From positions 3,776 to 67,775 of the forward strand of contig CANPPW010000002.1 in the NCBI GenBank assembly GCA_947576095.1: 64,000 nt of DNA. The letters are read 5' to 3'. The translations under genes were made by a program, and so were the position numbers. Under the pieces are notes generated by a model, which was given only the letters and a program-made list of their open reading frames with translations, ran no database searches and was not told the origin of the DNA. Origin of the DNA: an uncultured Mycoplasmatota bacterium. Its GTDB lineage: Bacteria > Bacillota_I > Bacilli_A > RF39 > UBA660. Positions within the stretch are counted from its first letter, which is position 1. Every line of letters starts with the position of its first letter. This document shows, piece after piece, positions 2,838 through 60,349 of the stretch.

Positions 2838-2886
2838 TTTTATTGATAAAATAAGTTATGATAAATATAATTTGAGGTGGAGTTTT

Positions 2887-7522: not shown

Positions 7523-7523
7523 T

Positions 7524-7787
7524 ATGCATACAAAAACGATTGAATGGAAAATAGATAATAAAATAGGTGTTTGGCTTCAACTGCTTGTAAGCATTCCCCT
7601 TTTGATTTTTGTTGTTTTTTACTTTTTTAATAAAAATACAGTCCCCCTTTTAATGGGAACTGCTTCTATATTTTTGTTTTTAGGTGCTTATAATAATTTT
7701 AAATATTATAAAAGAAAATATATGACTTATTTATATCTTATTGTAGGAAGTATTTTACTTATAGATTTTATAACAAAGGTATTTTAA
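7524..7787 (+). CDS. Small two-TM membrane protein, hypothetical
   Basis: GGAGTGG RBS 5 nt upstream of ATG 7524. Two hydrophobic helices. Stop overlaps ylxM start (TAATG). Confidence 0.5.
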   Translation: MHTKTIEWKIDNKIGVWLQLLVSIPLLIFVVFYFFNKNTVPLLMGTASIFLFLGAYNNFKYYKRKYMTYLYLIVGSILLIDFITKVF

Positions 7788-8080
7788 TGGAAAATAAAAT
7801 TTATATAAGTAATTTATTTGATTTATATGAGGGATTATTAACCGATAAACAAAAAGAATATTTTAAGGCTTATTATTTTGATGATTTAAGTTTATCAGAA
7901 TTAAGTGAGAATTATCATATTAGTAGAAATGCTATACACAAGCAAATTAAAGAAGCTATTTATAAACTACAGTTTTATGAAGAAAAATTAATGCTTTATC
8001 AAAAGAAAAAAAGAATATATGATATAATGAATCAAATAGAAGATCATCATATTAAAGAACAATTAAAAGAATTATTATAG
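7787..8080 (+). CDS. ylxM: YlxM/p13-like DNA-binding protein (UPF0122, sigma-70 region-4-like HTH)
   Basis: LFDLYEGLLTDKQKEYFKAYYFDDLSLSELSENYHISRNAIHKQIKEA matches the YlxM family. Canonical position immediately after ftsY. Confidence 0.75.
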   Translation: MENKIYISNLFDLYEGLLTDKQKEYFKAYYFDDLSLSELSENYHISRNAIHKQIKEAIYKLQFYEEKLMLYQKKKRIYDIMNQIEDHHIKEQLKELL

Positions 8081-9854: not shown

Positions 9855-10283
9855 AAATGTAATAAAAAAACACTTTTATGATGTTACTTGAAAATAAGGG
9901 GATTTTCATTTTAAGCTGTAAAAAACTGTCAATATCATTTGAGTAACTGGAAATTTCTAGATTTTCCAATTCATAAGCAATGTCAATCATGGTTTTATTT
10001 TATCAGTAAAAGTTCTTTGAGCAGAATCTGGATCACTGTAGTCCTTATTGATTCATTCCCATCTTCTCAGTAAGAAATCAAAATTGCTTTTTCTTCAAGT
10101 AATCTTATGAAAAGAGAGATCATTAATAAAAAATGAGGTGTATGAATACCTCTGTTTTTCATATTATTTACAGATTTTTAAATAATAAATAGAATTGTGC
10201 CAATCAAAGGGGGCTAGTAAAAAAATGATAAATGTGATAGACTAGAAAAGTAAAGTAGGAAAATAGAAGTAAGGAGAGATAGA

Positions 10284-11510
10284 ATGAAAAGGAAAAATGG
10301 ATTTACATTAATTGAACTATTAGCTGTTATAGTTATACTTGCTATCATTGCACTTATTACTTCTCCAATTGTGATAGGTGTAATAGATAAATCGAGAAAA
10401 GAAGCGTTTAGAGATTCCGCATATGGAGTGATAGAAGCAGGAAGAATCTATTACTTAGAGAGTGTAGCAGATACCAATGCATTTACAGGAAAAACATTTG
10501 ATTTATCAAAGGGAGAGTTAAAATTGTCAGGAGAAAAACCAAAGGAAGGAACTCTTGAAATAAAAGATGACGGAAAAATGATTCTTATGATGCATAATGG
10601 TAATTATTGTGCTACAAAGAGTGAGGATAAAGAGACTGTTGAAATCAGTAAATTGGCAGATGGAAAATGTGAAATACAGGAAAATAATAGTGGAGCACAA
10701 ACAATTCGTGATATGGGTGTAGTAACATCTGGTGATGGATTGTATGTAAATGAACCTAATTTAGGTGGTGGTCATGTATTCAAAGGGACAAATCCAAACA
10801 ATTTATTATTATTTGATAATAAATGCTGGAGTGTTATCAGTGTAGAAGATAACGATGAAATTAAAATTATTTATGAAGGAGAAGCTGCTGATAGTACCAT
10901 TTGTACAAGAAACGGAGATGGTGGTTCACCAGGAACTTGGCAGTGGAATGCGAGTAATAATTGGCATGATGAAGATTTATCGGTTCGTAGTAAACTAGAG
11001 GGGATAGCAAGTGGACAAAGATGGAATGACTTTAAAAAGATGACAAGGTTAGATAAGGTATCTGATCATGCTTGGAATGTAGGGGCTGTTACAGTTGATA
11101 TTTATAGTGGTGGTAGCATTCAGGAGTTATTAGAACAAGAAAAGAATGGGAAAGATCCATCTTGGTCTACAGAAATTTCTAGTAAGTGGAATAATAAACT
11201 TGGTCTTATTAATGTAAGTGATGTTGTTAAGTCATCTACAAGTTCAAGATGTACATCTGGAGTATGGGGGACTATGATTGGTGCCTATTTACCTGATATA
11301 TGTGGGAATGAAAGTTACCTTGTAAAAAATTATGCATATTGGACATTAAATGCGGTAACCAATGGTAATGTTGCTGCATCTTCAGGAAATGCTTCAAATA
11401 GTGGATATTTGTCAAATAATTTTCTTGGTGTTCGTCCTGTTTTATATTTAAATAGTGATGTAGAAATTACGGGAACTGGAACGAGTGCTGATCCATTTGT
11501 TGTAGCTTAG
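10284..11510 (+). CDS. Large prepilin-type (class III signal peptide) protein, paralog 1
   Basis: N-terminus MKRKNG/FTLIELLAVIVILAIIAL is a type IV pilin N-methylation motif with Glu at +5. 408 aa. C-terminus ...GVRPVLYLNSDVEITGTGTSADPFVVA. Confidence 0.7.
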   Translation: MKRKNGFTLIELLAVIVILAIIALITSPIVIGVIDKSRKEAFRDSAYGVIEAGRIYYLESVADTNAFTGKTFDLSKGELKLSGEKPKEGTLEIKDDGKMILMMHNGNYCATKSEDKETVEISKLADGKCEIQENNSGAQTIRDMGVVTSGDGLYVNEPNLGGGHVFKGTNPNNLLLFDNKCWSVISVEDNDEIKIIYEGEAADSTICTRNGDGGSPGTWQWNASNNWHDEDLSVRSKLEGIASGQRWNDFKKMTRLDKVSDHAWNVGAVTVDIYSGGSIQELLEQEKNGKDPSWSTEISSKWNNKLGLINVSDVVKSSTSSRCTSGVWGTMIGAYLPDICGNESYLVKNYAYWTLNAVTNGNVAASSGNASNSGYLSNNFLGVRPVLYLNSDVEITGTGTSADPFVVA

Positions 11511-15297: not shown

Positions 15298-17340
15298 ATG
15301 AAAAATAAAAAAATAATTATAGGTGCTTTGCTTATCATGTTGGTTTTGATAATAGGTTATTTTGTCTTTTTTAAACAAGATCGGCATTCTACATTAACAC
15401 TTGTGGAAAAACAGTGGATTGAAAAACAAAAAAACAAAATGATCGATTTAGCAGTTTTAAGTAGTATACCTGTATTTAATTATGAGGGAAATGGGGTTTT
15501 TTTAGATTTTATTGAATCTTTGGAAAAAAATACTGGTTTAGAATTTAATAAAATTTCATATACGAAAGATCAAGAGAGTACAGAATCATATTCATTTGCA
15601 ATTGTAGATAAAGCTTCTAAAGATGATTTGTTATTTTATCAAGATAATTATGTTTTACTTGTAAAGGGAGCGGAGAAGTATGATAATCTATCCTCTTTGC
15701 CTCCTATGAACATAGGAGTGATTTCTGAAGATTTAGAACGTATTTACACATATCTTGGGAAGACCAATCGTTTTACCTATCAGGCATACGATTCTTTTGA
15801 AACTTTATTTTCTATTTTTAGTGGGGAAAATAGTCCTTTATCTGCGATTGCTGTACCTAAAAATTTATATTTAAATAAAGTTTTAGAAAATCGTTTTAGT
15901 ATAGCCTATCAAATGACAGATTTTACAAAGGATTATGTATTAAAGTTAGGAAAAAATAAAAACTTAAATACCATTTTAAAAAGGTATTACAAAAAGTGGA
16001 AAATAAAATCTTATGAAGAACATTATGCAAATCATTTAGCGAATAGCTATTTTGAATTTAAACAAATTTCAGAACAAGAAAAAAGTGATTTTAGAAGTAA
16101 AAGATATGAATATGGTTTTGTAGAAAACAGTCCTTATGATTTTACTTATGGTGGAAAATTAAAGGGAATCAATCCTGAATATATGAGAGAATTTTCTAAA
16201 ATAGCTGGAATTGAAATCAAGTATAAAAAGTATAGTAGTATAAAGGACATGGTGACAGATTTTAATAAGGAAAAATTAGATTTTATTTTTGCAAATCATA
16301 GCTTTAAAGAATATGATATCAATACCTATCTCACTGTTAGTAATAGTGATCATTCAGTTGCGATTCTAACTGACTTAACGAATAATAAAAAAATTAATTC
16401 TATTTATTCTCTTCAAGGCGATAAAGTTATGGTTTTAAAGAATACAAAAATAGAAAATAAACTTAAAAGTAGTGGTGTAGATGTGATTTCCTATAATTCT
16501 ATGAAAGAATTATTAGAAAATCAAAATAAAAATAGTATTATTGCTCTTGATTTATATAGCTATAATTATTATTCTCATAATGAATTAAAAACCTATAGGC
16601 TTGCTTATTCATATTTGTTAGATGATCCATATGGTTTTGTAATAAGAGATATCAAAGAAAATAAGATTTTTGAACAATTTTTGAATTTTTATATTTCTTA
16701 TTCAGAAGAGAAAATTCATATCGATAACGCTATGAAAGATTTACTTGTCATTGAAAATAATTTTGGTTGGTTAATTAGTGGACTTTTATATATTGCTGCT
16801 ACAATTGGAGTATGTGCTGTTATAAAATCAGTAGTAGGACTATTTATCAAACCACAAGAAAACAAAAAAAGTCCTTTTTCAAGGGAAGAAAAATTAAAAT
16901 ATATAGACCAGCTAACATCTTTAAAAAATAGGAATTATTTAAATGATAATATTAGCAAGTGGGACGAAAGTGATGTATATCCTCAAACAATTTTAATTAT
17001 AGATTTAAATAATATTGCTTATATTAATGATAATTATGGACATAAAGAGGGAGATGCCGTAATAGCAGAAGCTGCTAATATTTTAATTAAAAATCAAGTT
17101 GTGAATAGTGAAATGATTCGTACAAATGGGAATGAATTTTTAATTTATTTGGTTGGATACAATGAAAAACAAGTTGTTTCTTACATTCGTAAATTGAATA
17201 AAGAATTTAAAGAACTCAGTCATGGCTTTGGGGCTGCTATTGGGTATAGCACGATTATGGACGCTATTAAAACGGTAGATGATGCAATTAATGAAGCTAC
17301 ATTAGATATGAGAACTGTAAAAGAAGAAAATAATAATTAA
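15298..17340 (+). CDS. Membrane sensor protein with extracytoplasmic domain and C-terminal degenerate GGDEF domain
   Basis: N-terminal TM, large periplasmic-type domain, second TM, then a GGDEF-family domain (LTSLKNRNYLND...YGHKEGDAVI) whose signature is GNEFL rather than GG[DE]EF. Confidence 0.6.
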   Translation: MKNKKIIIGALLIMLVLIIGYFVFFKQDRHSTLTLVEKQWIEKQKNKMIDLAVLSSIPVFNYEGNGVFLDFIESLEKNTGLEFNKISYTKDQESTESYSFAIVDKASKDDLLFYQDNYVLLVKGAEKYDNLSSLPPMNIGVISEDLERIYTYLGKTNRFTYQAYDSFETLFSIFSGENSPLSAIAVPKNLYLNKVLENRFSIAYQMTDFTKDYVLKLGKNKNLNTILKRYYKKWKIKSYEEHYANHLANSYFEFKQISEQEKSDFRSKRYEYGFVENSPYDFTYGGKLKGINPEYMREFSKIAGIEIKYKKYSSIKDMVTDFNKEKLDFIFANHSFKEYDINTYLTVSNSDHSVAILTDLTNNKKINSIYSLQGDKVMVLKNTKIENKLKSSGVDVISYNSMKELLENQNKNSIIALDLYSYNYYSHNELKTYRLAYSYLLDDPYGFVIRDIKENKIFEQFLNFYISYSEEKIHIDNAMKDLLVIENNFGWLISGLLYIAATIGVCAVIKSVVGLFIKPQENKKSPFSREEKLKYIDQLTSLKNRNYLNDNISKWDESDVYPQTILIIDLNNIAYINDNYGHKEGDAVIAEAANILIKNQVVNSEMIRTNGNEFLIYLVGYNEKQVVSYIRKLNKEFKELSHGFGAAIGYSTIMDAIKTVDDAINEATLDMRTVKEENNN

Positions 17341-18426: not shown

Positions 18427-19581
18427 CTAGATAGATATATCACCAGAGATTATTTCACTCAAAAATCTAAGATATAAATCTAAAATATTTGCCTTTTCTA
18501 CAGATTCTTTTACAGTAATATTCATTTGTCTTTCCTTTTTTCCATTTTCGGTAACAGTAATTTTTCCTACAATATCGCCTTTTTTTACAGGTGCTTTTAT
18601 AGAATTGATATCAAGTGTGTAATCTATTTTTTTCGATTTTTCAGATATCTTATGCAATGTAGTGATATCTTTCATTGGAACCAATGATACATATTTTTTC
18701 TTGCCTCTATCAATCTCTTTTTTTTGTAAAATTGTGTTTTTTGAAACGATTGTATCAAGTTTATAATTGGCAAATGCATAATCTAACATTTGTGTGGTTT
18801 CTGTATTTCTGACTTTATTATCCTCTTCTCCCATTACAACAGTAATTACACGCATTCCATTTTTTTTAGCTGTTGCTGTTAAACAGTAGCCAGCCTCTTT
18901 AGTATATCCTGTTTTAAAACCATCTACACCATCATAGAATTTTACAAGTTTATTTGTATTAACCAACCAGATTTCTTTATCAGTGCCTTTTCGAAGATAG
19001 TCTTCATAGATAGATGTAAATTCAAAAATTTTTTCATGCTTCGATAATTCTAAAGCAATCATAGCCATATCATAGGCACTAGAATAGTGATTTGCATCAT
19101 CAAGTCCATGAGGATTTTTAAAATTTGTATCTTTAAGATCTAATTCACGAGCTCTTTTATTCATTCTTTTTACAAATTCTTCTTTACTACCAGCAATCCT
19201 TTCTGCAAGAGCTACAACAGCATCATTTCCACTAGCCACGGCAACTCCCTTAAATAAATCATATACACTCATTTTCTCGCCTGTTTCAAGCAATATCTGA
19301 CTTCCTCCCATACTAGAAGCATTTTCAGATACAGTAACCATTTCATCCCATGAAAGAGTTTTATCTTCAATGGCCTCCATAACGAGAAGCATACTCATCA
19401 TTTTTGTCATACTAGCTGGATGTAATTTTTCATGACTATTTTTTTCAAATAAAATTGTTTCTGTTGTTGGCTCTATTATAATAGCACTTTTGGCATTTGC
19501 TGCGAGTGAAATTTCTTCTGCTCTAATATTAGGAGCAAAAGAAAGAATAAATAAACTGCATAATATTAAAAATTTTTTCAT
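18427..19581 (-). CDS. D-alanyl-D-alanine carboxypeptidase (peptidase S11, PBP5-like)
   Basis: SMTK, SGN (ASGND) and KTG (FKTGYT) motifs. Signal peptide. Confidence 0.85.
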   Translation of the reverse strand: MKKFLILCSLFILSFAPNIRAEEISLAANAKSAIIIEPTTETILFEKNSHEKLHPASMTKMMSMLLVMEAIEDKTLSWDEMVTVSENASSMGGSQILLETGEKMSVYDLFKGVAVASGNDAVVALAERIAGSKEEFVKRMNKRARELDLKDTNFKNPHGLDDANHYSSAYDMAMIALELSKHEKIFEFTSIYEDYLRKGTDKEIWLVNTNKLVKFYDGVDGFKTGYTKEAGYCLTATAKKNGMRVITVVMGEEDNKVRNTETTQMLDYAFANYKLDTIVSKNTILQKKEIDRGKKKYVSLVPMKDITTLHKISEKSKKIDYTLDINSIKAPVKKGDIVGKITVTENGKKERQMNITVKESVEKANILDLYLRFLSEIISGDISI

Positions 19582-19694: not shown

Positions 19695-20825
19695 ATGAAA
19701 AAATTATTATTTATAACAATTATATTATTTTGCTGTTGTTCTGCGAAAGCGATTGAGCCAGTAGGGATTACAAAAAAAGCTACAGAAGTTTATTCTACCA
19801 AAACACTCACAAATGGGAAGAGGGTTCGGGCACAATTATTTTATCTTTATGTGAATGATGAAATTGCATATTGTATAGAACCTGGTGTTGTTTTGCATGA
19901 TATTCCATATCAGTCCAGTATGGATTTTGAGTCATTTGGAATTTCGGATGACATAAGGGAAGAATTGGAGAGAATTGCTTATTATGGATATGATTATGAG
20001 AATCATCAAAATTTATATTATTATATGGCAACTCAACAATTAATTTGGGAAAAAATGGGATCCCAAAATATAGTCTGGGATACAGCAAGTAATGATTTAC
20101 CTAATATTGATGATTATAAGAAAGAGATTCTGCGTTTGATGGAAAAACATAATGTATTTCCTAGTTTTGCAGAAAGTACTATATCTGTGAAGGTTGGGGA
20201 ACCCTATAAATTGGTAGATCAGAATGGTGTTCTTGATGATTTTGAAGGTGATGGTATAAAAATTGAAAATAATACTATTATTTTCGATAGTAGTGAAGAA
20301 GTAACCAAAACATATACCTTACATCAAAAAAGAAGAAAGTCTGTTAGTTTTGCCTATTTTGCTAATTCATCACAAAGTTTGGCAACATTTGGGCTTTCCA
20401 ACCCCCAGCAAAAGCATTTTTCCTTTTCAGTTAAATTTTTGAAAGAAAAGGGGCGAATTATTCTTACGAAAAAGGATGGTAGTACTCAATTACCATTAGA
20501 GGGAGCAACATTTATTTTATATGATCAAAATCATGTTTTATTAGAAAAAAAGGTCAGCTCTTCAAATGGTGTGATTACTTGGGATAATCTTCCTTATGGA
20601 AAATACTTTATTAAGGAAGAATCTGCCCCAAAGGGATATGTTTTACTGGATGAAGAAATAGAAGTCCATTTATCTCAAAAAGAAAAACAGATTATTACTT
20701 GTAATCAGCCAACTCAAATGCCTATAACAAGTAACATAGATTCTAAATATGAAAGATTAGCACTATCATTTTTTGGTGCTGGATGTATTTTACTTTATGT
20801 TTTTAAAAAGATTTTTAAAAGTTAG
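19695..20825 (+). CDS. Secreted cell-surface protein with N-terminal TQXA/thioester-like domain, Cna-B/prealbumin-like domain and C-terminal hydrophobic anchor
   Basis: Signal peptide. YCIEPG ... ATQQLIWE motifs. TFILYDQNHVLL...GKYFIKEESAPKGYVL is CnaB-like. C-terminal hydrophobic stretch plus KKIFKS tail with no canonical LPXTG. Confidence 0.55.
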   Translation: MKKLLFITIILFCCCSAKAIEPVGITKKATEVYSTKTLTNGKRVRAQLFYLYVNDEIAYCIEPGVVLHDIPYQSSMDFESFGISDDIREELERIAYYGYDYENHQNLYYYMATQQLIWEKMGSQNIVWDTASNDLPNIDDYKKEILRLMEKHNVFPSFAESTISVKVGEPYKLVDQNGVLDDFEGDGIKIENNTIIFDSSEEVTKTYTLHQKRRKSVSFAYFANSSQSLATFGLSNPQQKHFSFSVKFLKEKGRIILTKKDGSTQLPLEGATFILYDQNHVLLEKKVSSSNGVITWDNLPYGKYFIKEESAPKGYVLLDEEIEVHLSQKEKQIITCNQPTQMPITSNIDSKYERLALSFFGAGCILLYVFKKIFKS

Positions 20826-21336
20826 TATATTTCTTTGTTTTGTGATAGGATTTCTTTTCCTTTTCTTTATTTATTATAGGATATATAGGTATAGTAAAAT
20901 AGAAAAAAAGTTCATTCATGAAAAACAGGTAGAGGAACAAAGATATACACAAATTCCCTATATAGAAATTCCTACTTTGCACATTTCAAAAATCATTAAA
21001 TCAAGTACAGATAAAGAGATATTAGATAAATATTACATTGGCATTTGGAACAAAGAAAAAAATATTGATCAAATAAATCATCTAGTTTTAGCAGGACATA
21101 ATGTGAAAAGCGTGTTTGGTACTTTACACAAAATAGAAATAGGAGATAAGGTGTATATTTTTTATAAAGATAAAAAATATATTTATCAAGTATCTTTAAA
21201 AAAGGAGATTTACATAACGGAGATGGATTATTTAAAAGATACGAATTATAAAAAATTATCTTTACTCACATGCACAAAAAACAACCAAATTAGGTTGTTA
21301 GTACAAGCTATATTTCAAGAAAGCCATTCTCTTTAA
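20773..21336 (+). CDS. Sortase-family transpeptidase
   Basis: N-terminal TM. His (LVLAGHN), Cys (LSLLTCT = TLXTC) and Arg (IRLLVQA) triad. Overlaps the end of the upstream surface-protein gene. Confidence 0.7.
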   Translation: MVLDVFYFMFLKRFLKVSIFLCFVIGFLFLFFIYYRIYRYSKIEKKFIHEKQVEEQRYTQIPYIEIPTLHISKIIKSSTDKEILDKYYIGIWNKEKNIDQINHLVLAGHNVKSVFGTLHKIEIGDKVYIFYKDKKYIYQVSLKKEIYITEMDYLKDTNYKKLSLLTCTKNNQIRLLVQAIFQESHSL

Positions 21337-39425: not shown

Positions 39426-40658
39426 ATGAATAGAAAAGGTTTTACATTAATAGAATTATTAGCGGTTATTGTAATTCTTGCAATATTAGCAGTACTAGTT
39501 ACTCCTATGGTCAATGATACAATTAATAATGCTAAACAGAAAACATTCAAAAATACAGTGGAAGGAATGATTCGAAGTATTCAATTGGATGCATCTGATA
39601 AAGATTATTCTGCAGCAAAATATACTGTTGCAGATGGAGTTATATTAGATGAAAGTGGAAATAAAGTTCATACTAGTGGTGGATCCAATGAAAATGGAAC
39701 AATTCATATCGATGAAGATGGTAATATTACTTTAAGTGTTCATGATAACAAATGGTGTGCTACTAAAACAGCCAGTAATAATAAAATAGAGATGAGTAAA
39801 TTTGAAGAAGGGGCCTGTGGTGTTATTGAGACTACGAATGGTGCGCAGACAATTATTGACTTAGGAATTACTGAATCTGGAGAGGGCCTTTATGAAAATC
39901 CTAAACAAAATGGTGGTGGCTATGTATTTAAAGGTGGTCAAAATAAGAACAATTTAATTTTTGATGACAAATGTTGGTATGTAATTGGCATAGATGGGAA
40001 TAATCAAGTTAAGCTAATTTTGAATAGAAAAGCTCAAGATGGAAAATGTAGGAGTGATAATGCTACTTATGATTTAAGTGTTGCTTGGAATGGGACACAA
40101 AGTTCTTATACGAATTATTGGTTTGATAGCAAAACAACAATGCGAACTACATTAGAATCACTCGCAAATGGACAATCTTTTAATGGATTTTCTATAGAAA
40201 ATTTAGATAAAGTGGCAAATCATACATGGAATGTGGGAGCTGTAAATGCTTCCATACAATTAGGAGCTCCAACAAATATTTCTTCTATATTAGAACAAGA
40301 AAAAAATGGGGGAATTTCTAGTTGGCCAGCAGCAGGCCCCTATCAGTGGCAAAATAAGGTGGGTCTTCTTAATGTAAGTGATGCCATGAATGGTTCTACA
40401 ATGTCAGTTTGTCAATCAGAATCATGGGGAGATTATCTATTTGCTTATATTCCATATTTCTGTGTTGAACAAAATTCTATCTCTCCATCTGGATGGACCC
40501 TTAATGCATATGAATATGATAAGCGGGCTGTAGTTTTCAGTTCAGAGCTGACTAAACATACCTATCAAGAAGAATATTTTGTACCAGTCATATATTTAAA
40601 TTCTAATGTCAAAATAACAGGAACAGGAACAGTAGATGATCCATTTGTTACGACATAA
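39426..40658 (+). CDS. Large prepilin-type (class III signal peptide) protein, paralog 2
   Basis: MNRKG/FTLIELLAVIVILAILAVL. 410 aa. Shares blocks with 10284-11510 (NGAQTI, GGG.VFKG, LLFD.KCW.VI, HxWNVGAV, ILEQEKNG, LNVSD, P.LYLNS.V.ITGTGT..DPFV). Confidence 0.7.
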   Translation: MNRKGFTLIELLAVIVILAILAVLVTPMVNDTINNAKQKTFKNTVEGMIRSIQLDASDKDYSAAKYTVADGVILDESGNKVHTSGGSNENGTIHIDEDGNITLSVHDNKWCATKTASNNKIEMSKFEEGACGVIETTNGAQTIIDLGITESGEGLYENPKQNGGGYVFKGGQNKNNLIFDDKCWYVIGIDGNNQVKLILNRKAQDGKCRSDNATYDLSVAWNGTQSSYTNYWFDSKTTMRTTLESLANGQSFNGFSIENLDKVANHTWNVGAVNASIQLGAPTNISSILEQEKNGGISSWPAAGPYQWQNKVGLLNVSDAMNGSTMSVCQSESWGDYLFAYIPYFCVEQNSISPSGWTLNAYEYDKRAVVFSSELTKHTYQEEYFVPVIYLNSNVKITGTGTVDDPFVTT

Positions 40659-40703: not shown

Positions 40704-40792
40704 GTAAAAATATAACGGTCATAAATATACCTATGTTAAACAATTTAGTTCTTTTTCTTTAAAATATACATATAGTTACATAGGTGATATGT

Positions 40793-41575
40793 ATGAAATA
40801 TCAGATTGGGAGTTTTGTTACAAGAAAATCTTATGACCATGATTTAGTATTTCAAGTGATTGATGTGATAAATGGAGAGTATATTTTAAAAGGGAAAAGT
40901 GTTAGACTTTATGCCGATAGTCCAGAAGAAGATCTTGAGATATATAAAGATCAAAAAGAAGAAGAAGAGCAAGATTTTGTAGCTCGCTTAAAAGAAGTTG
41001 ATACATTAAATCGTGATGAATACTTTTATTTACCAGGTAAGATTCTACATATAGATGGTGATAAAGAATACTTAGATAGGTGTTTAAAATATTATAAAGA
41101 CTATAATTTGTGGGCAATTGGTGTTTGCAAGAAGGAAGAAGAAGTACCAGATATGATAGAGCAACTGCTAGAAGAACATAATCCGAATATACTAGTAATT
41201 ACAGGTCATGATGCCTATTATAAGAAAAAAGGTGCGACAGGTGACTTGTGTGCTTATAAAAATAGTCAAAATTTTGTATCCTCTATTACAGCAGCACGTA
41301 AATTTGAAGGTAGTCATGAAAAATTAATTATTATCGCTGGAGCGTGTCAATCCAATTATGAGGAATTGATTAAAGCGGGAGCTAATTTTGCATCTAGTCC
41401 TAAAAGAATTAATATCCATGCCCTAGATCCAGCTATTATAGCCCAATCTATCAGTTTGGCCGATATTACAGAGGATATTGATTTAAAAAGAATTATTGAA
41501 AAAACAAAATATGGAAAAGATGGAATTGGTGGAATTAAAACTAAAGGAACTATGTATATAGGGTATCCAAGATAG
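40793..41575 (+). CDS. yabG: Sporulation-specific protease YabG
   Basis: YabG family pattern (ILVITGHDAYYKKKG...IIIAGACQS). AGGTGA RBS before ATG 40793. Confidence 0.8.
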   Translation: MKYQIGSFVTRKSYDHDLVFQVIDVINGEYILKGKSVRLYADSPEEDLEIYKDQKEEEEQDFVARLKEVDTLNRDEYFYLPGKILHIDGDKEYLDRCLKYYKDYNLWAIGVCKKEEEVPDMIEQLLEEHNPNILVITGHDAYYKKKGATGDLCAYKNSQNFVSSITAARKFEGSHEKLIIIAGACQSNYEELIKAGANFASSPKRINIHALDPAIIAQSISLADITEDIDLKRIIEKTKYGKDGIGGIKTKGTMYIGYPR

Positions 41576-43028: not shown

Positions 43029-43319
43029 ATGGACAAAGATCATGTACTTACAAATTATAATCATTCAGTAACAATTACAGAACGAAAGAATTTAGTGATA
43101 ACAGGTGTTAAGAAAATAGAAAGTTTTGATGATGAAGAATTTTTGATGGAAACTAATATGGGATTTATTGTTATAAAAGGAGAAGCATTAGAAATTATTA
43201 AACTTGATACCTATCAAGGGAATGTATCTATTAAGGGGACTGTAAATAGTTTATCATATATGGAAAATAAGACAGGCAAAACAAAAGAAGAGGGCGTTTT
43301 TAATAAATTATTCAAATGA
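43029..43319 (+). CDS. yabP: Sporulation protein YabP
   Basis: HSVTITERKNLVITGVKKIESFDDEEFLMETNMGFIVIKGEALEI matches YabP. Confidence 0.8.
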   Translation: MDKDHVLTNYNHSVTITERKNLVITGVKKIESFDDEEFLMETNMGFIVIKGEALEIIKLDTYQGNVSIKGTVNSLSYMENKTGKTKEEGVFNKLFK

Positions 43320-43603
43320 TGAATCTTGAAACACAAATATACTTAATTTTATATTCCTATATCTATGGATTTCTTTTTTCATATATACTGTCTTATACAT
43401 ATCAATATATTTATAAACAAACTGTTATACCTAAAATTATTTTATCTTTTTTATTTGTTTTAAATGCTGTATTTATTTATTTTATTTGTCTTCGAAAAAT
43501 TAATTATGGAATTTTACATGTTTATTCTTTTTTATTAATTCTTTTAGGATTTATAAGCGAACATTTTATTATCAATTATCTTGATAAGAGAAAGAGAAAA
43601 TGA
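43316..43603 (+). CDS. yabQ: Spore cortex biosynthesis membrane protein YabQ
   Basis: Overlaps yabP. Small polytopic membrane protein in conserved position. Confidence 0.6.
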   Translation: MMNLETQIYLILYSYIYGFLFSYILSYTYQYIYKQTVIPKIILSFLFVLNAVFIYFICLRKINYGILHVYSFLLILLGFISEHFIINYLDKRKRK

Positions 43604-44713: not shown

Positions 44714-45085
44714 CTAGTTTTGTATATATTTTTTAATACTTTCATCGAATACAATATAGTCAACGTAGATATTTGGAATCAGTGTCCAGTGTCCTGTTGC
44801 AGGATCGCTTATAATTATATGGTCTCTTCCTGCAGCTTCTAAAATGCCAGAAAAGCGCTTATCTAGCCATTCTTTGGATCCGTTAAAGGTTGCATATACT
44901 GTGATTTGAATGGGTTCAACAGCTTTTAAAACATCTTCTATAAAGTCTGTATTATTCATATTGTTGCTACTAGTGTTGATATTGGGAGCCGTTTGTTGGT
45001 TTGGAGTGGGAATCCCTCCATAATAAAGTGGACTACCTGGTTCTCCAGGAGTAAATTGTCCTGTTGTAAACATATCATTATTCAT
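44714..45085 (-). CDS. gerQ: Spore coat protein GerQ
   Basis: C-terminal IISDPATGHWTLIPNIYVDYIVFDE matches GerQ/YwdL. N-terminal Pro/Gln/Asn-rich region. AAGGAG RBS. Confidence 0.65.
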   Translation of the reverse strand: MNNDMFTTGQFTPGEPGSPLYYGGIPTPNQQTAPNINTSSNNMNNTDFIEDVLKAVEPIQITVYATFNGSKEWLDKRFSGILEAAGRDHIIISDPATGHWTLIPNIYVDYIVFDESIKKYIQN

Positions 45086-50443: not shown

Positions 50444-50956
50444 ATGAGAAATTTATATATTGATTTTGATGGTGTCATTATGGATACAATAACCAATTCA
50501 TACAAAATGATAAAAGAGTTAGGTATTGATTTAAATGATAGTGAAAAAGTTATTGCTTTTTATAAAGAATTGAACTGGGAAAAGTTGTTAAATGAAAGCC
50601 TAGAAATACATGATGCATTTGATGAAATAGATAAATTGATTAAAAGTGGGAAGTTTCATGTAAATATTTTAACACATGTTACGTCTTTAAATGAGGCTGA
50701 AGCCAAAATTAACTTTGTTAGACAAAAACTGCAAGAAATTTCCATTATTACAGTTCCTAAGTCTATAGATAAAGCACGAATGGTACAGGCTAAAAATTCT
50801 ATATTAATAGATGATTATATAGGTAATTTGGAAAAATGGAAAGCAGCTGGGGGAATTGGGGTGCGATTTTCAACTAAATTAAATGGAAAAGGATTTCAGG
50901 CCATTGCCTATTTAAATCAAATTATTGAACTTGTAAAAGATGGAGAAATGGTGTAA
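50444..50956 (+). CDS. HAD-superfamily 5'(3')-deoxyribonucleotidase-like hydrolase
   Basis: HAD motif I YIDFDGVIMDT and C-terminal ILIDDY motif. Confidence 0.6.
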   Translation: MRNLYIDFDGVIMDTITNSYKMIKELGIDLNDSEKVIAFYKELNWEKLLNESLEIHDAFDEIDKLIKSGKFHVNILTHVTSLNEAEAKINFVRQKLQEISIITVPKSIDKARMVQAKNSILIDDYIGNLEKWKAAGGIGVRFSTKLNGKGFQAIAYLNQIIELVKDGEMV

Positions 50957-51046
50957 TACTTTTGTTTTTTTCCAAGATAATTTATTTTGCATTTTTTTTC
51001 TTTTTATGTTAAAATACTCAATTAAGAAATAAAAAGGGAGGCTAGT

Positions 51047-51766
51047 ATGTATATTGAATTTTTAGTAAGGAATAATTTTAGACAAAAATATTTGGATTTA
51101 TTTGCACAACGGTTTTCTTATGGAAGTTTGACAATAGAAAATGAGATGAATGGATATACAGATACAGAAAGTATAGTAAAAATTTATAATAATAAGATTG
51201 CCTTTGAAAAGTTATTAGATGAAAATAAGGAAAGGCTTAATATTGGAGATATTCAGGATGTTGCAAGCACAGTACATCAAAATTTAAAATATTTTTCAGA
51301 TGGATTTCGTAAGATCAATATTATGGTTCAAGGCGCGCCTTTTGTTCCGCCAGCTCCGGAACAAGTTTATGAAGCTATGTATTATTTATTAAATTCTTAT
51401 TACAAAATATGGGATTTATTACCTACATTTGAAAGAGAAGCAAGGTTTCATATTGGCTTTATACAAATACATCCTTTTGAAGATGGAAATGGTAGAACTG
51501 GTCGAATTCTCATGAATTATAATTTGTGTAAAAATAATAAAGCACCAATTGTTATAGAAAAAAAGGATAGAGGGGTCTATTTTGATTTAATTAATCATAG
51601 TGATGTTACAGGCCTGGCACAATTTATTAAAGAAAAATCGAATCAAGAATTAGAAGTTATGATGCAATTATATAGTCAAATATGTGGAGATAATGATATT
51701 AATTCTGATATAAAAGAAAATGATCAAAATGTTAAAATATATAATTTACAAAGGAAAGCAGTTTAA
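51047..51766 (+). CDS. Fic/Doc-family protein (Fido domain) with N-terminal inhibitory motif
   Basis: Canonical Fic motif HPFEDGNGRTGR. N-terminal SLTIEN fits (S/T)xxxE(G/N) auto-inhibition motif. Confidence 0.85.
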   Translation: MYIEFLVRNNFRQKYLDLFAQRFSYGSLTIENEMNGYTDTESIVKIYNNKIAFEKLLDENKERLNIGDIQDVASTVHQNLKYFSDGFRKINIMVQGAPFVPPAPEQVYEAMYYLLNSYYKIWDLLPTFEREARFHIGFIQIHPFEDGNGRTGRILMNYNLCKNNKAPIVIEKKDRGVYFDLINHSDVTGLAQFIKEKSNQELEVMMQLYSQICGDNDINSDIKENDQNVKIYNLQRKAV

Positions 51767-51767
51767 A

Positions 51768-51794
51768 ATAGCACTCTATATTGACGAGTGCTAT
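51768..51794. promoter_or_regulatory. CIRCE element (HrcA operator): aTAGCACTC-N9-GAGTGCTAt
   Basis: Near-perfect match to TTAGCACTC-N9-GAGTGCTAA. Overlaps the -35 of the clpB promoter. Confidence 0.8.
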
Positions 51795-51809
51795 TTTTCG
51801 TGATATAAT
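51781..51809 (+). promoter_or_regulatory. Sigma-A type promoter of clpB (TTGACG-N17-TATAAT)
   Basis: Consensus -35 and -10 hexamers with 17-nt spacer. Confidence 0.7.
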
Positions 51810-51817
51810 GTAGATAT

Positions 51818-51833
51818 TGGTTATATATAACCA
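51818..51833. promoter_or_regulatory. Perfect 16-bp palindrome TGGTTATATATAACCA in clpB leader
   Basis: Seen directly. Lies between -10 and RBS. Confidence 0.4.
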
Positions 51834-51860
51834 GTTATTTATAAAAAGGAGGTCGTATAT

Positions 51861-53978
51861 ATGAATATGCAAAATCCATATGAAGAAAACTTACAAAAAC
51901 CCCTTGAAAAATATGGTAGAAATATTGTTCAGAACGTAAAAGATGGGAAGGTAGATCCTGTGATTGGTCGTGATGATGAAATTCGTTCAATTACACGAAT
52001 TTTATCTAGAAAAACAAAAAATAACCCTGTTTTAATTGGGGAACCAGGAGTAGGGAAAACGGCTATCATAGAAGGTTTAGCACAAAGGATTGTGAAAGGT
52101 GATATTCCTGATTCCTTGAAAGGAAAAACAATTTGGGAATTAGATATGGGCTCATTAATTGCGGGTGCTAAATATAGAGGAGAGTTTGAAGAAAGATTAA
52201 AAGCAGTTTTAAAAGAAGTAAAAGATTCAGATGGTGAAATCATTATGTTTATTGATGAAATCCATATGATTGTAGGTGCAGGCGCTTTAGAAGGGGCAAT
52301 GGATGCTGGAAATATGTTAAAACCTATGCTGGCACGTGGTGAGATTCATGTTATTGGTGCCACAACTCTCAATGAATATAGAAAATATATAGAAAAAGAT
52401 GGTGCCTTAGAGCGTAGATTTCAAAAGGTACAAGTGAAAGAACCAACTGTTTTGGATGCAATCACCATTTTAAGAGGATTGAAGCAAAGATTTGAAGTTT
52501 ATCATGGTGTAACTATTAAAGATAAGGCCTTAATAGCTGCCGCCACTTTATCAGATCGTTATATTACGGATCGTTTTTTGCCAGATAAAGCGATAGATTT
52601 GATTGATGAAGCTTGTGCAACAATAAAGGTACAAATGGATTCTGTTCCGACCAATTTGGATACACTTTCTCGTAATATTATGAGACTTGAAGTGGAAAAA
52701 CAGGCTTTAAAGAAAGAAAAAGATGATATATCACGTAACAGAGTAGAAGAGATTAATAAAAAATTAGAAAAAATGAAGGAAGAAGAATCCCAATTAAGAA
52801 AAGAATGGGAAGATGAAAAGCATATTAATGATCAAATAAATGGGAAAAAAGAGGAGATAGAAAAATGTCATTTTAAACTTGAACAAGCTGAAAATGATTA
52901 TGATTTAGAAATGGCAGCAAAATTGCGGCATGGGACTCTTCCTAAACTAGAAGCTGAATTAGAAGATTTAAAGAAACAAGATATATCAAAACTATTAAGT
53001 GATACAGTTGATGAAGAATCGATCGCATCTATTATTTCTAAATGGACTAATATTCCTATTAGTAAATTAGTAGGTACAGAAAGGGAAAAATTATTACATC
53101 TTAAAGATAATCTGAAAAAAAGAGTTAAGGGACAGGATCAAGTATTAACACTTGTTAGTGAAGCAATTTTGCGAAGTCGTTCTGGTATTAAAGATCCTAA
53201 TAAACCGATCGGTTCTTTCATTTTTTTAGGTCCAACGGGTGTTGGTAAGACAGAAGTGGCGAGAAGTCTTGCCTATGAACTATTTGATGATGAAAGACAT
53301 ATGGTTCGGATTGATATGAGTGAATATATGGAGTCACATAGTGTATCAAGACTTGTTGGAGCTCCTCCAGGATATATAGGATATGATGAGGGAGGACAAC
53401 TGACAGAAGCTGTTAGAAGAAATCCTTATAGTATTGTTTTGTTTGATGAAATTGAAAAAGCTCATAAAGACGTTTTTAACTTACTTTTACAAATTTTAGA
53501 TGATGGTAGAATTACAGATTCACAAGGAAGAACAGTTGATTTTAAAAATACAATCATTATTATGACATCTAACTTAGGTAGTGAATATATACTTGAAAAT
53601 AAAAATGAAGCGAAAGAACTGGTGATGAATGAATTAAGACATACCTTTAAACCTGAGTTTTTAAATCGTATTGATGAAATTATTTTATTTAATTCACTAG
53701 AAAAAGGTATTGTTTATGATATTTTAAATAAAATTATTTCGGAAATTGAACAAAGATTATCAGATAAAAAAATAAAAATTGTATTAGATGAGAAAGCTAA
53801 AGATTATATTATTGAAAGTGCTTATGATGAAAGATATGGTGCAAGACCAATTAAGCGTTTTGTTTCACGGCATTTAGAAACCTTAATCGCCAAAAATATT
53901 ATTGCTAGTCAAATTCATTTTGGAGAAACGATTCGAGTAAGTGCTAATAAAGAAAATTTGATATTAGAGGGGAAATAG
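51861..53978 (+). CDS. clpB: ClpB-type AAA+ disaggregase lacking the N-terminal domain
   Basis: Two AAA+ modules ([10 protein letters not shown]; GPTGVGKTE), long coiled-coil M-domain between them. Protein begins at the D1 region ([23 protein letters not shown]). AAAGGAGG RBS and promoter sit directly upstream, so no room for an N-domain exon. Confidence 0.85.
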
Positions 53979-53990
53979 CCCTCTTTTTAT
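53967..53990 (+). terminator. Rho-independent terminator after clpB
   Basis: GAGGG-gaaatag-CCCTC followed by TTTTTAT. The stop codon lies in the loop. Confidence 0.6.
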
Positions 53991-54044
53991 ATAGATTTTT
54001 TTTGCATTTTAGTATATAATGGTAACCATAAATGAGGTGATATA

Positions 54045-55352
54045 ATGTTTGAAAATTTGGGTGAAAGATTAACTCGTGTAGTGGATAAAATGAGAGGATA
54101 TGGAAGGATTACAGAAGAAAATGTAAGTGAAATTGTAAGAGAAATAAGACTTGCATTATTAGAAGCTGATGTAAATTATCAGGTTGTAAAAGAATTTGTT
54201 GCAAATGTAAAGCAAAAGGCTTTAGGAGAAGAAGTAAATAAAAGTTTAAAACCTGGTGAAGTTTTTGTCAAAATTGTAAAAGATGAACTTGTCGAATTAT
54301 TAGGTGGAGATAGTGCACCTCTTTATGTAAATGGTAATCCTAGTATTTTGATGCTTGTAGGTCTTCAAGGAAGTGGAAAAACAACAACAATTGCTAAATT
54401 AGCAAATTATTTAAGAAAAAAAGAACACAAAAAACCACTTTTAGTTGCATGTGATGTATATAGACCAGCTGCAATTGATCAATTAAAGCAATTAGGGAGA
54501 GAACTATCAATTCCTGTATATGATGAAGGAGCAGGAAATCCTATCGAAATTGCCACTCATGCAACTAATTTTGCAAAAGAAAATGGATATGATTATATAT
54601 TAATTGATACTGCAGGAAGACTTCATATTGATGAGAAACTTATGAAAGAGCTTTCTGATATTACAGATGTAATTCATCCACAAGAAACTATACTTGTCTT
54701 AGATAGTATGACAGGACAGGATGCTATACATGTAATTGAGGGATTTCATGAAAAGTTACAGTTAACAGGTGCTATTTTGACAAAGTTAGATGGGGATACA
54801 AAAGGTGGAGTTGCTCTTTCAGTGCGCCATTTAACAAATGTTCCTATAAAATTTATTGGTGTAAGTGAAAAATTAGATGGACTTGAACCTTTTCATCCAG
54901 ACCGAATGGCTTCTCGGATTCTGGGCATGGGTGATCTTCTTTCTATGATCGAGAAAGCCGAAAATATTATGGATCAGGAAGAGGCTTTTGAAGCAGCCAA
55001 AAAGATGAAAAATGGAAAATTTGATTTAGAGGATTTTCTTGTGCAGTTTAAGCAAATAAAAAAATTAGGTCCTTTAGAAAATTTGATTAAGATGATTCCA
55101 GGTGCATCGAAACTAGGACTTCAAAATGTGAAAATTGATCCTAAAGATATTGCCCATATTGAAGCGATCATTCTTTCTATGACCCCTTATGAAAGAAGAC
55201 ATCCTGAGGTGTTAAAAGCTTCTAGGAAACAGAGAATTGCAAAAGGAAGTGCGAGAAGTGTTGAAGAAGTAAATCGCCTTTTAAAACAATTTGAACAAAT
55301 GAAAATGATGATGAAAAAAATGCAAAATGGAAATTTTAAGATGCCATTTTGA
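54045..55352 (+). CDS. ffh: Signal recognition particle protein Ffh
   Basis: GLQGSGKTTT, DTAGR, TKLDGDTKGG and Met-rich C-terminal M domain. Confidence 0.95.
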   Translation: MFENLGERLTRVVDKMRGYGRITEENVSEIVREIRLALLEADVNYQVVKEFVANVKQKALGEEVNKSLKPGEVFVKIVKDELVELLGGDSAPLYVNGNPSILMLVGLQGSGKTTTIAKLANYLRKKEHKKPLLVACDVYRPAAIDQLKQLGRELSIPVYDEGAGNPIEIATHATNFAKENGYDYILIDTAGRLHIDEKLMKELSDITDVIHPQETILVLDSMTGQDAIHVIEGFHEKLQLTGAILTKLDGDTKGGVALSVRHLTNVPIKFIGVSEKLDGLEPFHPDRMASRILGMGDLLSMIEKAENIMDQEEAFEAAKKMKNGKFDLEDFLVQFKQIKKLGPLENLIKMIPGASKLGLQNVKIDPKDIAHIEAIILSMTPYERRHPEVLKASRKQRIAKGSARSVEEVNRLLKQFEQMKMMMKKMQNGNFKMPF

Positions 55353-55481: not shown

Positions 55482-55757
55482 ATGTTTGGAAGAAGATGTT
55501 GTAATCGCCAAAACATGGGATTTGGTTATGGAAACCAAGGTATGAATACTATTACAGAAGGTCAGGTTGTAGAACCAACTATTACAAAATGTGTAGAACA
55601 AGAATGTTATCATGAAGTACCACACATTTGCCCAATTCATACTCATGTAATTAAACGCGATATTTACAATCATACTTACACTCCACAATATTCTTGCTCA
55701 CAAGAAAATCAAGTTGTGAACAACGATTGTGGTGGATGTTCTGGTTTTGCTAACTAA
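55482..55757 (+). CDS. Spore coat protein CotD-like (His/Cys-rich)
   Basis: ECYHEVPHICPIHTHVIKRDIYNHTYTP pattern resembles CotD family. Upstream CATATGATA is sigma-K -10-like. Confidence 0.5.
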   Translation: MFGRRCCNRQNMGFGYGNQGMNTITEGQVVEPTITKCVEQECYHEVPHICPIHTHVIKRDIYNHTYTPQYSCSQENQVVNNDCGGCSGFAN

Positions 55758-58606: not shown

Positions 58607-59251
58607 CTAGGAGAAATTTTTTAGATATTCTTCTAGTGTTATATTTTTCTCAAAAATGATTTTTGCAACTTCATGTCCTACATATCGGTAATGCCATGGT
58701 TCATATTTAAAACCTGTAATATTGGTTTTATTTTTAGGATATCTTAAAATAAAACCAAATTCATGGGCATGGTTTATCATCCAAGAAAATTCTGGAGATT
58801 TTTCAAATTCGTCATAATCTTGATTAGAACCTTCCACATCGACGGCAAGACCTGTTTGATGTTCCGAGTGCCCTTTTCTAGCACTACATAAATCAGCATA
58901 TTCAAGTCCCTTTTCTTTTACATACTGAGTATATAAAGCTTCCTGATATTCATAACTTCTATAAGTTGATGTTGCAACAATACGATATCCTAATGATTTG
59001 GCCGTCATGCTTAATTTTTCAAAAGCATCTTTTGCTTCTTTTCTCATAAATTTATCTTCAAATGCATAGGAAATATCTATTTTAGTTAAATCTTTTGGAA
59101 CATAATTTTTATCTAACTTGTGATTTTTATTAACAAGAACAAGAATATCATTGGGATGATGAATAGGTTCAATATTTTTATAAAAATTCATAATACTATC
59201 TCCTTTCATAAGTAAAATTAAAAATAAAATCCATATATATATCTTTGGCAT
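58607..59251 (-). CDS. VanY-like D-Ala-D-Ala carboxypeptidase (peptidase M15B)
   Basis: SEHQTGLAVDV and EPWHYRYVG motifs. Signal peptide. AGGTGGA RBS. Confidence 0.75.
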   Translation of the reverse strand: MPKIYIWILFLILLMKGDSIMNFYKNIEPIHHPNDILVLVNKNHKLDKNYVPKDLTKIDISYAFEDKFMRKEAKDAFEKLSMTAKSLGYRIVATSTYRSYEYQEALYTQYVKEKGLEYADLCSARKGHSEHQTGLAVDVEGSNQDYDEFEKSPEFSWMINHAHEFGFILRYPKNKTNITGFKYEPWHYRYVGHEVAKIIFEKNITLEEYLKNFS

Positions 59252-59294
59252 TTTTCCACCTATTATACTGTATGCAAAAAAAAAAGGATTTCTC

Positions 59295-60209
59295 CTATTT
59301 TAAATAAAAGGCAAAATATTCATCATAGGTTATTTTTTCATTTCTTATTTTTTTGGCAATTTCCCTTCCCACATATCGATAATGCCAAGGTTCATAAGCG
59401 TATCCTGTGATATCTTCTTTTTCTTTCGGAAACCTTAAAATAAATCCATATTCATGAGCATGATTTTGTAACCAAGTAAAAGCAGGAGAATCTTCAAATG
59501 TATCTCTATTTGTTCCAAAACCAATAATATCTAAAGCAAGACCTGTTTGATGTTCTGAAAAACCAGGCTTAGCAGCATAACTATCGGCATATTTTTCTCC
59601 ATATGTTTTTACATATTTGTCATATATTTTTTTCTGATCTATGTAACTTCTATATCCAGAGGTAGCAACTAGTTTTATATTCTCACTTTGAGCATCATCA
59701 CACATAGCTTTATATATCTCATATATATCTTTTCTGATTTGATTATTTTCGTATGCGTATTTTAAAGGAATATCTATAATACTAGATGGAACATAGTCTT
59801 CTGTTAAATAGAAATGTTTGTTTACTAGAATTTGATCATTTTTGCTTATATCTGCTTTTTCAGCTTTTTCATAAGCCTCTATATTTGCTTTGGTATTGAT
59901 AACAGAGACTATATATGTATAATCTTTTGTGTTATTTTCTTTTTGATAAGAAATATAAGCATCTAAATTTTTTTCAATAAAATATTTTTCTTGTATAATC
60001 TTAGAAAGATTTTCATTATATTTCATATTTAGAATCTTTTTAAAATTTTTCACTTTTTTTTGAATGATCTCTCTTTCTTCTTTTTGATATCCTAATTTTT
60101 GTAATTGATAGGGAATGCTATTTTGGTATTCAAAATACTTGTATACTGCAAAAATAGTTCCTAAAACAGAAAGAGTAAAAATTATTAAAATTATTTTTTT
60201 ATATTTCAT
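59295..60209 (-). CDS. VanY-like D-Ala-D-Ala carboxypeptidase (peptidase M15B), membrane-anchored paralog
   Basis: SEHQTGLALDI and EPWHYRYVG motifs. N-terminal TM. Confidence 0.7.
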   Translation of the reverse strand: MKYKKIILIIFTLSVLGTIFAVYKYFEYQNSIPYQLQKLGYQKEEREIIQKKVKNFKKILNMKYNENLSKIIQEKYFIEKNLDAYISYQKENNTKDYTYIVSVINTKANIEAYEKAEKADISKNDQILVNKHFYLTEDYVPSSIIDIPLKYAYENNQIRKDIYEIYKAMCDDAQSENIKLVATSGYRSYIDQKKIYDKYVKTYGEKYADSYAAKPGFSEHQTGLALDIIGFGTNRDTFEDSPAFTWLQNHAHEYGFILRFPKEKEDITGYAYEPWHYRYVGREIAKKIRNEKITYDEYFAFYLK

Positions 60210-60349
60210 ATGATCACCATTTTTATTATACAATAAAGATGTAGAGATATAAAGAATTTTAGTGTGACAATTTATTCATATTTATAAAATTTTGCTTGTA
60301 CAAATTATACAAATATATTATAATGTATATACCAGAAAGGATTGAAAAT

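Follow-up and report, generated by a model that had tools for sequence, protein, structure and literature searches.

Is the short ClpB encoded by an uncultured bacterium a complete protein in its own right, and what switches its gene on? [quoted passage not shown] Our analysis directly establishes the sequence elements of the locus, the domain content of the protein, the absence of its N-domain and the conservation of the operator/promoter cassette. Taken together, the gene is very probably a monocistronic heat-shock clpB, with a sigma-A promoter repressed by HrcA through CIRCE and a disaggregase lacking the N-domain as its product.

The operator and promoter of clpB

The predicted HrcA site occupies positions 51768..51794 (no strand assigned) and reads ATAGCACTC-TATATTGAC-GAGTGCTAT, a perfect 9-bp inverted repeat around a 9-nt spacer. 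Compared with the CIRCE consensus TTAGCACTC-N9-GAGTGCTAA it carries 2 mismatches, at the outermost base of each end, and these two bases are complementary to each other. When the whole window was scanned with up to 3 mismatches allowed, this was the single match, against 0.03 expected from shuffled sequences. A promoter scan placed the -35 hexamer TTGACG (51781..51786, + strand) inside the repeat, where it consists of the last 5 nt of the spacer and the first G of the right arm, and it is followed at a spacing of 17 nt by the TATAAT (51804-51809) of an extended -10 box, TGaTATAAT (51801..51809, + strand; TG at 51801-51802). Matching the consensus at 11 of 12 positions, this near-consensus sigma-A promoter was by far the top promoter-like site of the region. 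The repeat thereby coincides with a chaperone promoter, overlapping its -35 box and lying 67 nt upstream of the clpB ATG, and because of that overlap, bound HrcA would block RNA polymerase.

We then compared the upstream regions of ten further clpB lineages without the N-domain, all of them Mollicutes-like (L084, L086, L097, L087, L092, L095, L001, L020, L002 and L035), with ClpB identities of 60-87%. All 10 carried CIRCE before clpB, with 0-2 mismatches. The -35 sequence TTGAC(A/G) took the identical position within CIRCE in 12 of the 13 relatives' promoters that were tabulated, being shifted 1 nt upstream in L035, and the -10 box was TATAAT or TATACT, 16-17 nt past the -35. The flanking intergenic DNA, by contrast, was unrelated and unalignable among these lineages, and the genes upstream varied. 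A near-perfect site in otherwise unalignable surroundings indicates ongoing selection. Judged by its sequence and this comparison, the repeat is a true CIRCE, kept in evolution and overlapping the promoter, as a preliminary description of the locus had proposed when it reported a near-consensus CIRCE across a consensus promoter.

Several observations nevertheless weigh against HrcA control of this promoter. The operator departs from the consensus at both outermost positions; five T residues follow it, so that it could serve as a terminator for the upstream gene fic in the window; hrcA was not found in the 64-kb window, either in the Pfam lists or by tblastn; and the case for it is built on sequence.

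The T-run leads to the first competing explanation, namely that the repeat is merely the intrinsic terminator hairpin of fic and that its likeness to CIRCE is coincidental or a relic. The repeat begins 2 nt past the end of fic (stop codon 51764-51766), and on fic read-through RNA it would fold into a 12-bp hairpin (-14.4 kcal/mol, z = -4.45) with UUUUU behind it; a window in which hrcA was not found would also suit this explanation. The terminator scan did not call the hairpin, owing to its 9-nt loop. However, the T-run is not conserved, being replaced by A-rich sequence in L084, L092, L095, L001 and L020. The fic gene lies upstream of clpB in the same direction in the window, L086, L097 and L092, but is divergent in L084; in L087, L095 and L001 unrelated genes stand upstream of clpB, and fic is likewise absent there in L002, L020 and L035. 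The 18 specified bases are kept before clpB, with 0-2 mismatches, both in L084, where fic runs on the opposite strand, and in the six lineages with other upstream genes, and the -35 box remains embedded at its constant position apart from the 1-nt shift in L035. Retention of CIRCE where fic is divergent or absent argues that selection has kept the repeat for its place in the clpB promoter, not for ending fic. We therefore consider it very unlikely that the repeat is a fic terminator only, an objection which the preliminary description had raised against itself and which fails on the divergent locus and the six loci without fic, although a secondary terminator role in the window genome is plausible.

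A second explanation accepts the operator but supposes that this lineage has lost its regulator or has exchanged it, so that another factor binds the site or the site is a decaying relic. HrcA was not observed in the window, and neither HrcA nor CtsR nor a second Clp ATPase was recognised by Pfam among the genes of the 20-64 kb portion and the first 10 kb, or in an extra scan. Two HrcA sequences, a B. subtilis HrcA (which matched PDB 1STZ with E = 4.6e-28) and that of 1STZ itself, also served as tblastn queries on the window and 97 loci, where only locus L003 was matched. In S. melliferum, moreover, CIRCE decays gradually and some Spiroplasma copies are reported to be decaying relics (PMC5138195), and the two outer bases of the window operator are off consensus. 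Set against this, CIRCE is conserved almost perfectly across lineages in which the surrounding intergenic DNA cannot be aligned; only four transcription factors are kept throughout Mollicutes, HrcA among them, and a CIRCE still functions with as many as 2 mismatches (PMC5138195). From the purifying selection on CIRCE and from this literature we infer that HrcA is present in the window's genome, and a CIRCE outliving its regulator appears highly improbable.

The one locus matched by the HrcA queries belongs to Anaerosacchariphilus hominis (Lachnospiraceae; L003), in which hrcA lies at about 900-1990, divergently and upstream of a full-length clpB. A perfect CIRCE precedes this hrcA by about 63 nt, and the repressor gene is here physically linked to clpB. 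Control of the window clpB by CtsR was considered separately and rejected, since CtsR boxes in the window were not above chance (3 weak matches against 1.28 expected, none of them near clpB).

The ClpB protein and the absence of its N-domain

Downstream of this promoter, the clpB coding sequence (51861..53978, + strand) encodes a predicted N-domain-less ClpB disaggregase of 705 residues, identified by Pfam, PDB alignments and the NCBIfam model TIGR03346. Its first nucleotide-binding domain (NBD1) spans residues ~15-257, the M-domain coiled coil ~258-387, NBD2 ~388-612 and the D2-small domain 613-693, and the Pfam matches are AAA, AAA_lid_9, AAA_2 and ClpB_D2-small. The ATPase and pore motifs and sensor-2 are intact: Walker A at residues 60 (GEPGVGKT) and 457 (GPTGVGKT), Walker B at 128 and 525 (FIDEI at 130, LFDEI at 527), pore loops at 104 (KYRG) and 504 (GYIG), and GAR at 660. 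Among PDB chains, T. thermophilus ClpB residues 141-845 aligned with the protein in one stretch, end to end, and E. coli ClpB residues 155-854 aligned from query residue 9 onwards; Met1 and Met3 of the window protein thus fall on residues 147 and 149 of the E. coli protein, practically where the internal start for ClpB80 lies. These results agree with the initial account, in which a ClpB of 705 residues starts at D1 and has the two AAA+ modules as well as the M-domain, and they also bear out the likeness it had drawn to the short E. coli isoform ClpB80.

Could the protein instead be an unfoldase of the ClpC, ClpE or ClpL type that lacks an N-domain and acts with ClpP or as a stand-alone disaggregase? 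ClpC, ClpE and ClpA chains are also very strong matches, down to E = 1e-208, and NCBI labels the relatives of the window protein merely 'AAA family ATPase'. These chains, however, aligned in two stretches only, skipping the M-domain, whereas ClpB chains covered the protein from end to end as a single stretch, its full-length M-domain of some 130 residues included (query ~258-387 against T. thermophilus ClpB 395-525, with one single-residue gap). In ClpB the M-domain is the docking site of DnaK. TIGR03346 (ClpB) was the best NCBIfam model, at 1119.9 bits over model positions 145-852 of 853, and the IGF/LGF loop that binds ClpP was not found, there being no [IL]GF motif anywhere in the 705 residues. 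Assignment to one of these other families is thus hardly credible, and we treat the protein as a ClpB.

The N-domain was sought both in the protein and around it. Pfam detects no Clp_N in the window ClpB, and the TIGR03346 match begins only at model position 145 of 853; the 144 unmatched N-terminal positions account for a score below the curated equivalog cut-off of 1232.1. The known ClpB80 and Mycoplasma forms can likewise dispense with this domain. No Clp_N was found elsewhere in the window in any frame by tblastn with 8 N-domains from full-length relatives. In the 53 codons upstream of the ATG the same frame is interrupted by three stops, of which the closest is 11 codons away, and the 94 nt between the fic stop and the ATG are occupied by operator, promoter and ribosome-binding site. 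With the fic stop 2 nt before CIRCE, there is no room for an N-domain. The locus, its upstream region included, is identical in three independent assemblies, and 117 of the best 120 database homologues are 701-705 residues long. The stops, the identical assemblies and the homologue lengths together exclude an artefact, and by its sequence the window clpB can encode only the short form. Two statements of the preliminary description stand on this evidence, that promoter and ribosome-binding site leave no space for an N-domain and that the short form alone is encoded, and two of the checks it had suggested gave concordant answers: alignment to ClpB and ClpC references confirmed that the N-domain is absent, and a separate upstream reading frame for it was not found in the window. 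Given the in-frame stops, the filled 94-nt gap, the three assemblies, the uniform homologues and the lack of Clp_N-like sequence in any window frame, we assign a negligible chance to the idea that a frameshift, assembly error or truncation has hidden an in-frame extension and that the true protein has an N-domain, for which the canonical length of ~860 residues and the low TIGR03346 score, itself explained by the missing model positions, would speak.

The proposed mechanism and the clpB transcript

Under HrcA control, the locus would operate as follows. Without stress, an HrcA dimer held active by GroEL/ES would sit on CIRCE and keep RNA polymerase off the -35 box; unfolded proteins would titrate GroE, HrcA would be released and clpB would be transcribed. 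This GroE-titration mechanism is attributed to Mogk et al. 1997 in a passage of PMC7737663. The resulting mRNA would carry a small 5' stem-loop and a strong ribosome-binding site and would end at a terminator overlapping the stop codon. Its product would be a ClpB hexamer without N-domains, a natural counterpart of E. coli ClpB80, that threads aggregated proteins through its pore with DnaK docked on the M-domain. HrcA binding, heat induction and disaggregase activity are here those which we infer from CIRCE/HrcA and ClpB biology and from published Mollicutes data.

The intrinsic terminator of clpB (53966..53990, + strand; AGAGGG-GAAATAG-CCCTCT and then a T-run) overlaps the stop codon and was the sole terminator-like site in a scan of 50900-54200. 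Having its own promoter and a terminator across its stop codon, clpB forms a self-contained transcription unit ahead of ffh (54045-55352), which does follow directly, as first described. The ribosome-binding site AAAGGAGG (51845..51852, + strand), recognised by its sequence, ends 8 nt before the ATG at 51861, and an AGGAGG-like site is kept in the relatives.

Between promoter and ribosome-binding site lies an 8-bp stem-loop, AUUGGUUA-UAUA-UAACCAGU (51816..51835, + strand), where the clpB mRNA is predicted to begin or close to that point. In the window it folds with -5.9 kcal/mol and does not cover the ribosome-binding site. Equivalent stem-loops are found at the same position in L084 (about 9965-9984), L086/L097, L087/L088, L092/L094 and L095, so that within the window's clade the stem measures 5-9 bp and starts 6-10 nt past the -10 box, approximately at the predicted +1. 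The stems differ by lineage (TTGGTTA/TAACCAG, AGTAGT/ACTACT, TTGGT/ACCAA, AGTGAATGG/CCATTCACT and TTGGAG/CTCCAA) and enclose loops of 4-8 nt; such differing stems and varying loop lengths at one position suggest an element acting at the RNA level, and the hairpin may stabilise the 5' end of the mRNA. It appears confined to the window's clade, as none was seen in the more distant N-domain-less lineages, whose leaders are short. An Rfam search of the leader and the clpB gene returned chance snoRNA matches only and no family.

Known systems, the host and neighbouring genes

How far does this arrangement depart from known ones? The closest parallel is found in the mycoplasmas, whose ClpB (MPN531 of M. 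pneumoniae, MG355 of M. genitalium and that of M. gallisepticum) is likewise single and N-domain-less, at about 715-720 residues. One homologue, from Mycoplasmopsis meleagridis (P0134, WP_058947775.1; 720 residues), is 53% identical, aligning query residues 3-691 with its residues 12-702. The regulation is alike as well: M. pneumoniae clpB belongs to the HrcA regulon (PMC7737663), CIRCE precedes clpB, dnaK, lon and dnaJ in M. gallisepticum (PMC4245973), and clpB of S. melliferum is preceded by CIRCE (PMC5138195), there in two copies, whereas the window has a single CIRCE with an embedded -35. A passage of PMC6168691, citing Kannan et al. 2008, names Mycoplasma as the exception to the rule of two ClpB isoforms. 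The mycoplasmas themselves are wall-less and genome-reduced, in contrast to the window, which carries sporulation, sortase/pilin and peptidoglycan genes.

E. coli ClpB80, made from the internal GTG codon 149, has the same extent as the window protein and keeps NBD1, M-domain and NBD2. In E. coli, though, this short form is produced from one gene together with full-length ClpB95 and enters mixed hexamers with it, whereas the window encodes the short form only. The regulator of E. coli clpB is sigma-32, not HrcA. The class I operons of B. subtilis (hrcA-grpE-dnaK-dnaJ and groESL) share with the window the CIRCE consensus and a sigma-A promoter. Their CIRCE is at or downstream of the transcription start, while the window operator overlaps the -35 box. 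Presumably the GroE-titrated repressor logic is also common to both, going by the passage on Mogk et al. 1997 in PMC7737663, but the target differs, since the gene under CIRCE in the window is clpB and a Bacillus-type clpB belongs to CtsR.

The wider distribution of both features was gauged with 80 comparison loci from a genome-contig search with the whole ClpB, mostly distant full-length ClpBs: 75 were full-length and 5 N-domain-less (L001, L002, L020, L035 and L006). CIRCE, with at most 2 mismatches and within ~210 nt upstream, preceded 17 of the 75 full-length genes, mainly from Lachnospiraceae, Oscillospiraceae and Christensenellaceae (Clostridia). Many of these clostridial genes have the same layout of TTGAC in the spacer, for instance L007 and L067 (TTAGCACTC..TTGACGAGTGCTAA), but their ClpBs retain a Clp_N of ~145 residues, which the window ClpB lacks. 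A literature search on the HrcA regulon and clpB in Clostridia yielded only a C. difficile heat-stress paper, which makes no explicit statement on CIRCE at clpB. The view, put forward in the preliminary description, that CIRCE control sets this clpB apart therefore stands in relation to Bacillus but not as something unusual, for such control is the norm in Mollicutes (PMC5138195, PMC4245973, PMC7737663) and is present at these 17 of 75 full-length loci.

Loss of the N-domain is not peculiar to this lineage either. In a search of representative sequences, about 10 of the best 150 clusters (50% identity) were N-domain-less at full coverage, with lengths of 700-745 residues. One N-domain-less gene, in Planococcus maritimus (L006; region 2850-3010, with its start and upstream box), encodes a ClpB of ~705 residues that begins at NBD1 (TTG start, MVQFQNSNEEQ...) and is 61% identical, with no Clp_N upstream; it differs in having a perfect CtsR box, AGTCAAAGATGGTCAAA, and no CIRCE in its upstream region. 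In a distance-based neighbour-joining tree, which is indicative only, the window's clade groups with L020, L001 and L002, L035 (Izemoplasmatales) lies beside the full-length L060 and L070, and L006 is nested among full-length ClpBs of Bacillales. The position of L006 indicates that it lost the N-domain independently; with the same reservation, the tree implies at least two independent losses. The novelty that the first account had implied for an N-domain-less ClpB does not hold in view of these Planococcus and mycoplasma precedents (P0134, and PMC6168691 in the passage cited above).

The locus, in short, is a known Mollicutes-type clpB arrangement, both features of which are widespread elsewhere. 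What it changes is the standing of the supposedly 'unique' N-domain-less, CIRCE-controlled ClpB of mycoplasmas, which emerges as the standard form in a broad group of gut Bacilli, for the most part uncultured, which have kept both sporulation and a cell wall, alongside a CIRCE control of clpB that is widespread in Clostridia. The practical use lies in naming proteins now labelled 'AAA family ATPase' and in reconstructing regulons, and these genes offer natural material for the long-running question of what ClpB needs its N-domain for; no new mechanism is involved, and little beyond annotation is gained. One could speculate that N-domain loss and the CIRCE-embedded -35 box are together an old trait shared by Mollicutes and walled, spore-forming gut Bacilli, predating genome reduction and wall loss, that the conserved leader hairpin of the window's clade adds an undescribed post-transcriptional layer (mRNA stabilisation or temperature sensing), and that Fic is functionally tied to the chaperone, but as a joint proposal we find this doubtful.

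As for the host, one homologue that shares 80% identity with the window ClpB is named Candidatus Fimihabitans, a taxon placed by NCBI in Mycoplasmatota incertae sedis; the named ClpB homologues are 80-83% identical, and others carry the label 'Bacilli bacterium'. The window holds genes for sporulation (YabP, YabQ, YunB, GerQ, SSPI, a CotD-like protein and YabG, Peptidase_U57) and for the cell wall (sortase, a SpaA-type pilin, two VanY and PBP5), at 2070-2837, 40784-41575, 43029-43603, 44714-45085 (- strand), 55482-55757, 19695-21336, 18427-19581 (- strand) and 58607-60233 (- strand). These genes indicate that the host is a walled spore-former, despite the filing of its relative under Mycoplasmatota.

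The gene adjoining clpB upstream encodes a Fic-domain protein (51047-51766, + strand), whose active motif reads HPFEDGNGRTGR and whose N-terminal SLTIEN fits the class II inhibitory helix (S/T)xxxE(G/N). Fic genes also lie next to clpB, on its upstream side, in L084 (9015-9821, - strand), L086 (9065-9895), L097 (4312-5163) and L092 (8833-9900). The proteins are very divergent (at most 35% identity) and the wider gene context differs; in L084 the divergent fic has a consensus promoter of its own.

Elsewhere in the window, two proteins of ~410 residues (10284-11510 and 39426-40658) carry at the N-terminus a methylation motif like that of type IV pilins and no other recognisable domain, and a 680-residue protein (15298-17340) ends in GGDEF, with no other recognisable domain. 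Among the signal recognition particle genes, ftsY (in the 6545-8080 region) precedes a small unannotated reading frame (7500-7787), after which comes a ylxM-like gene (UPF0122/Sigma70_r4, 7787-8080), and ffh lies 46 kb away, immediately behind clpB. Since ylxM and ffh of Bacillus share one operon, these genes are arranged differently in the window.

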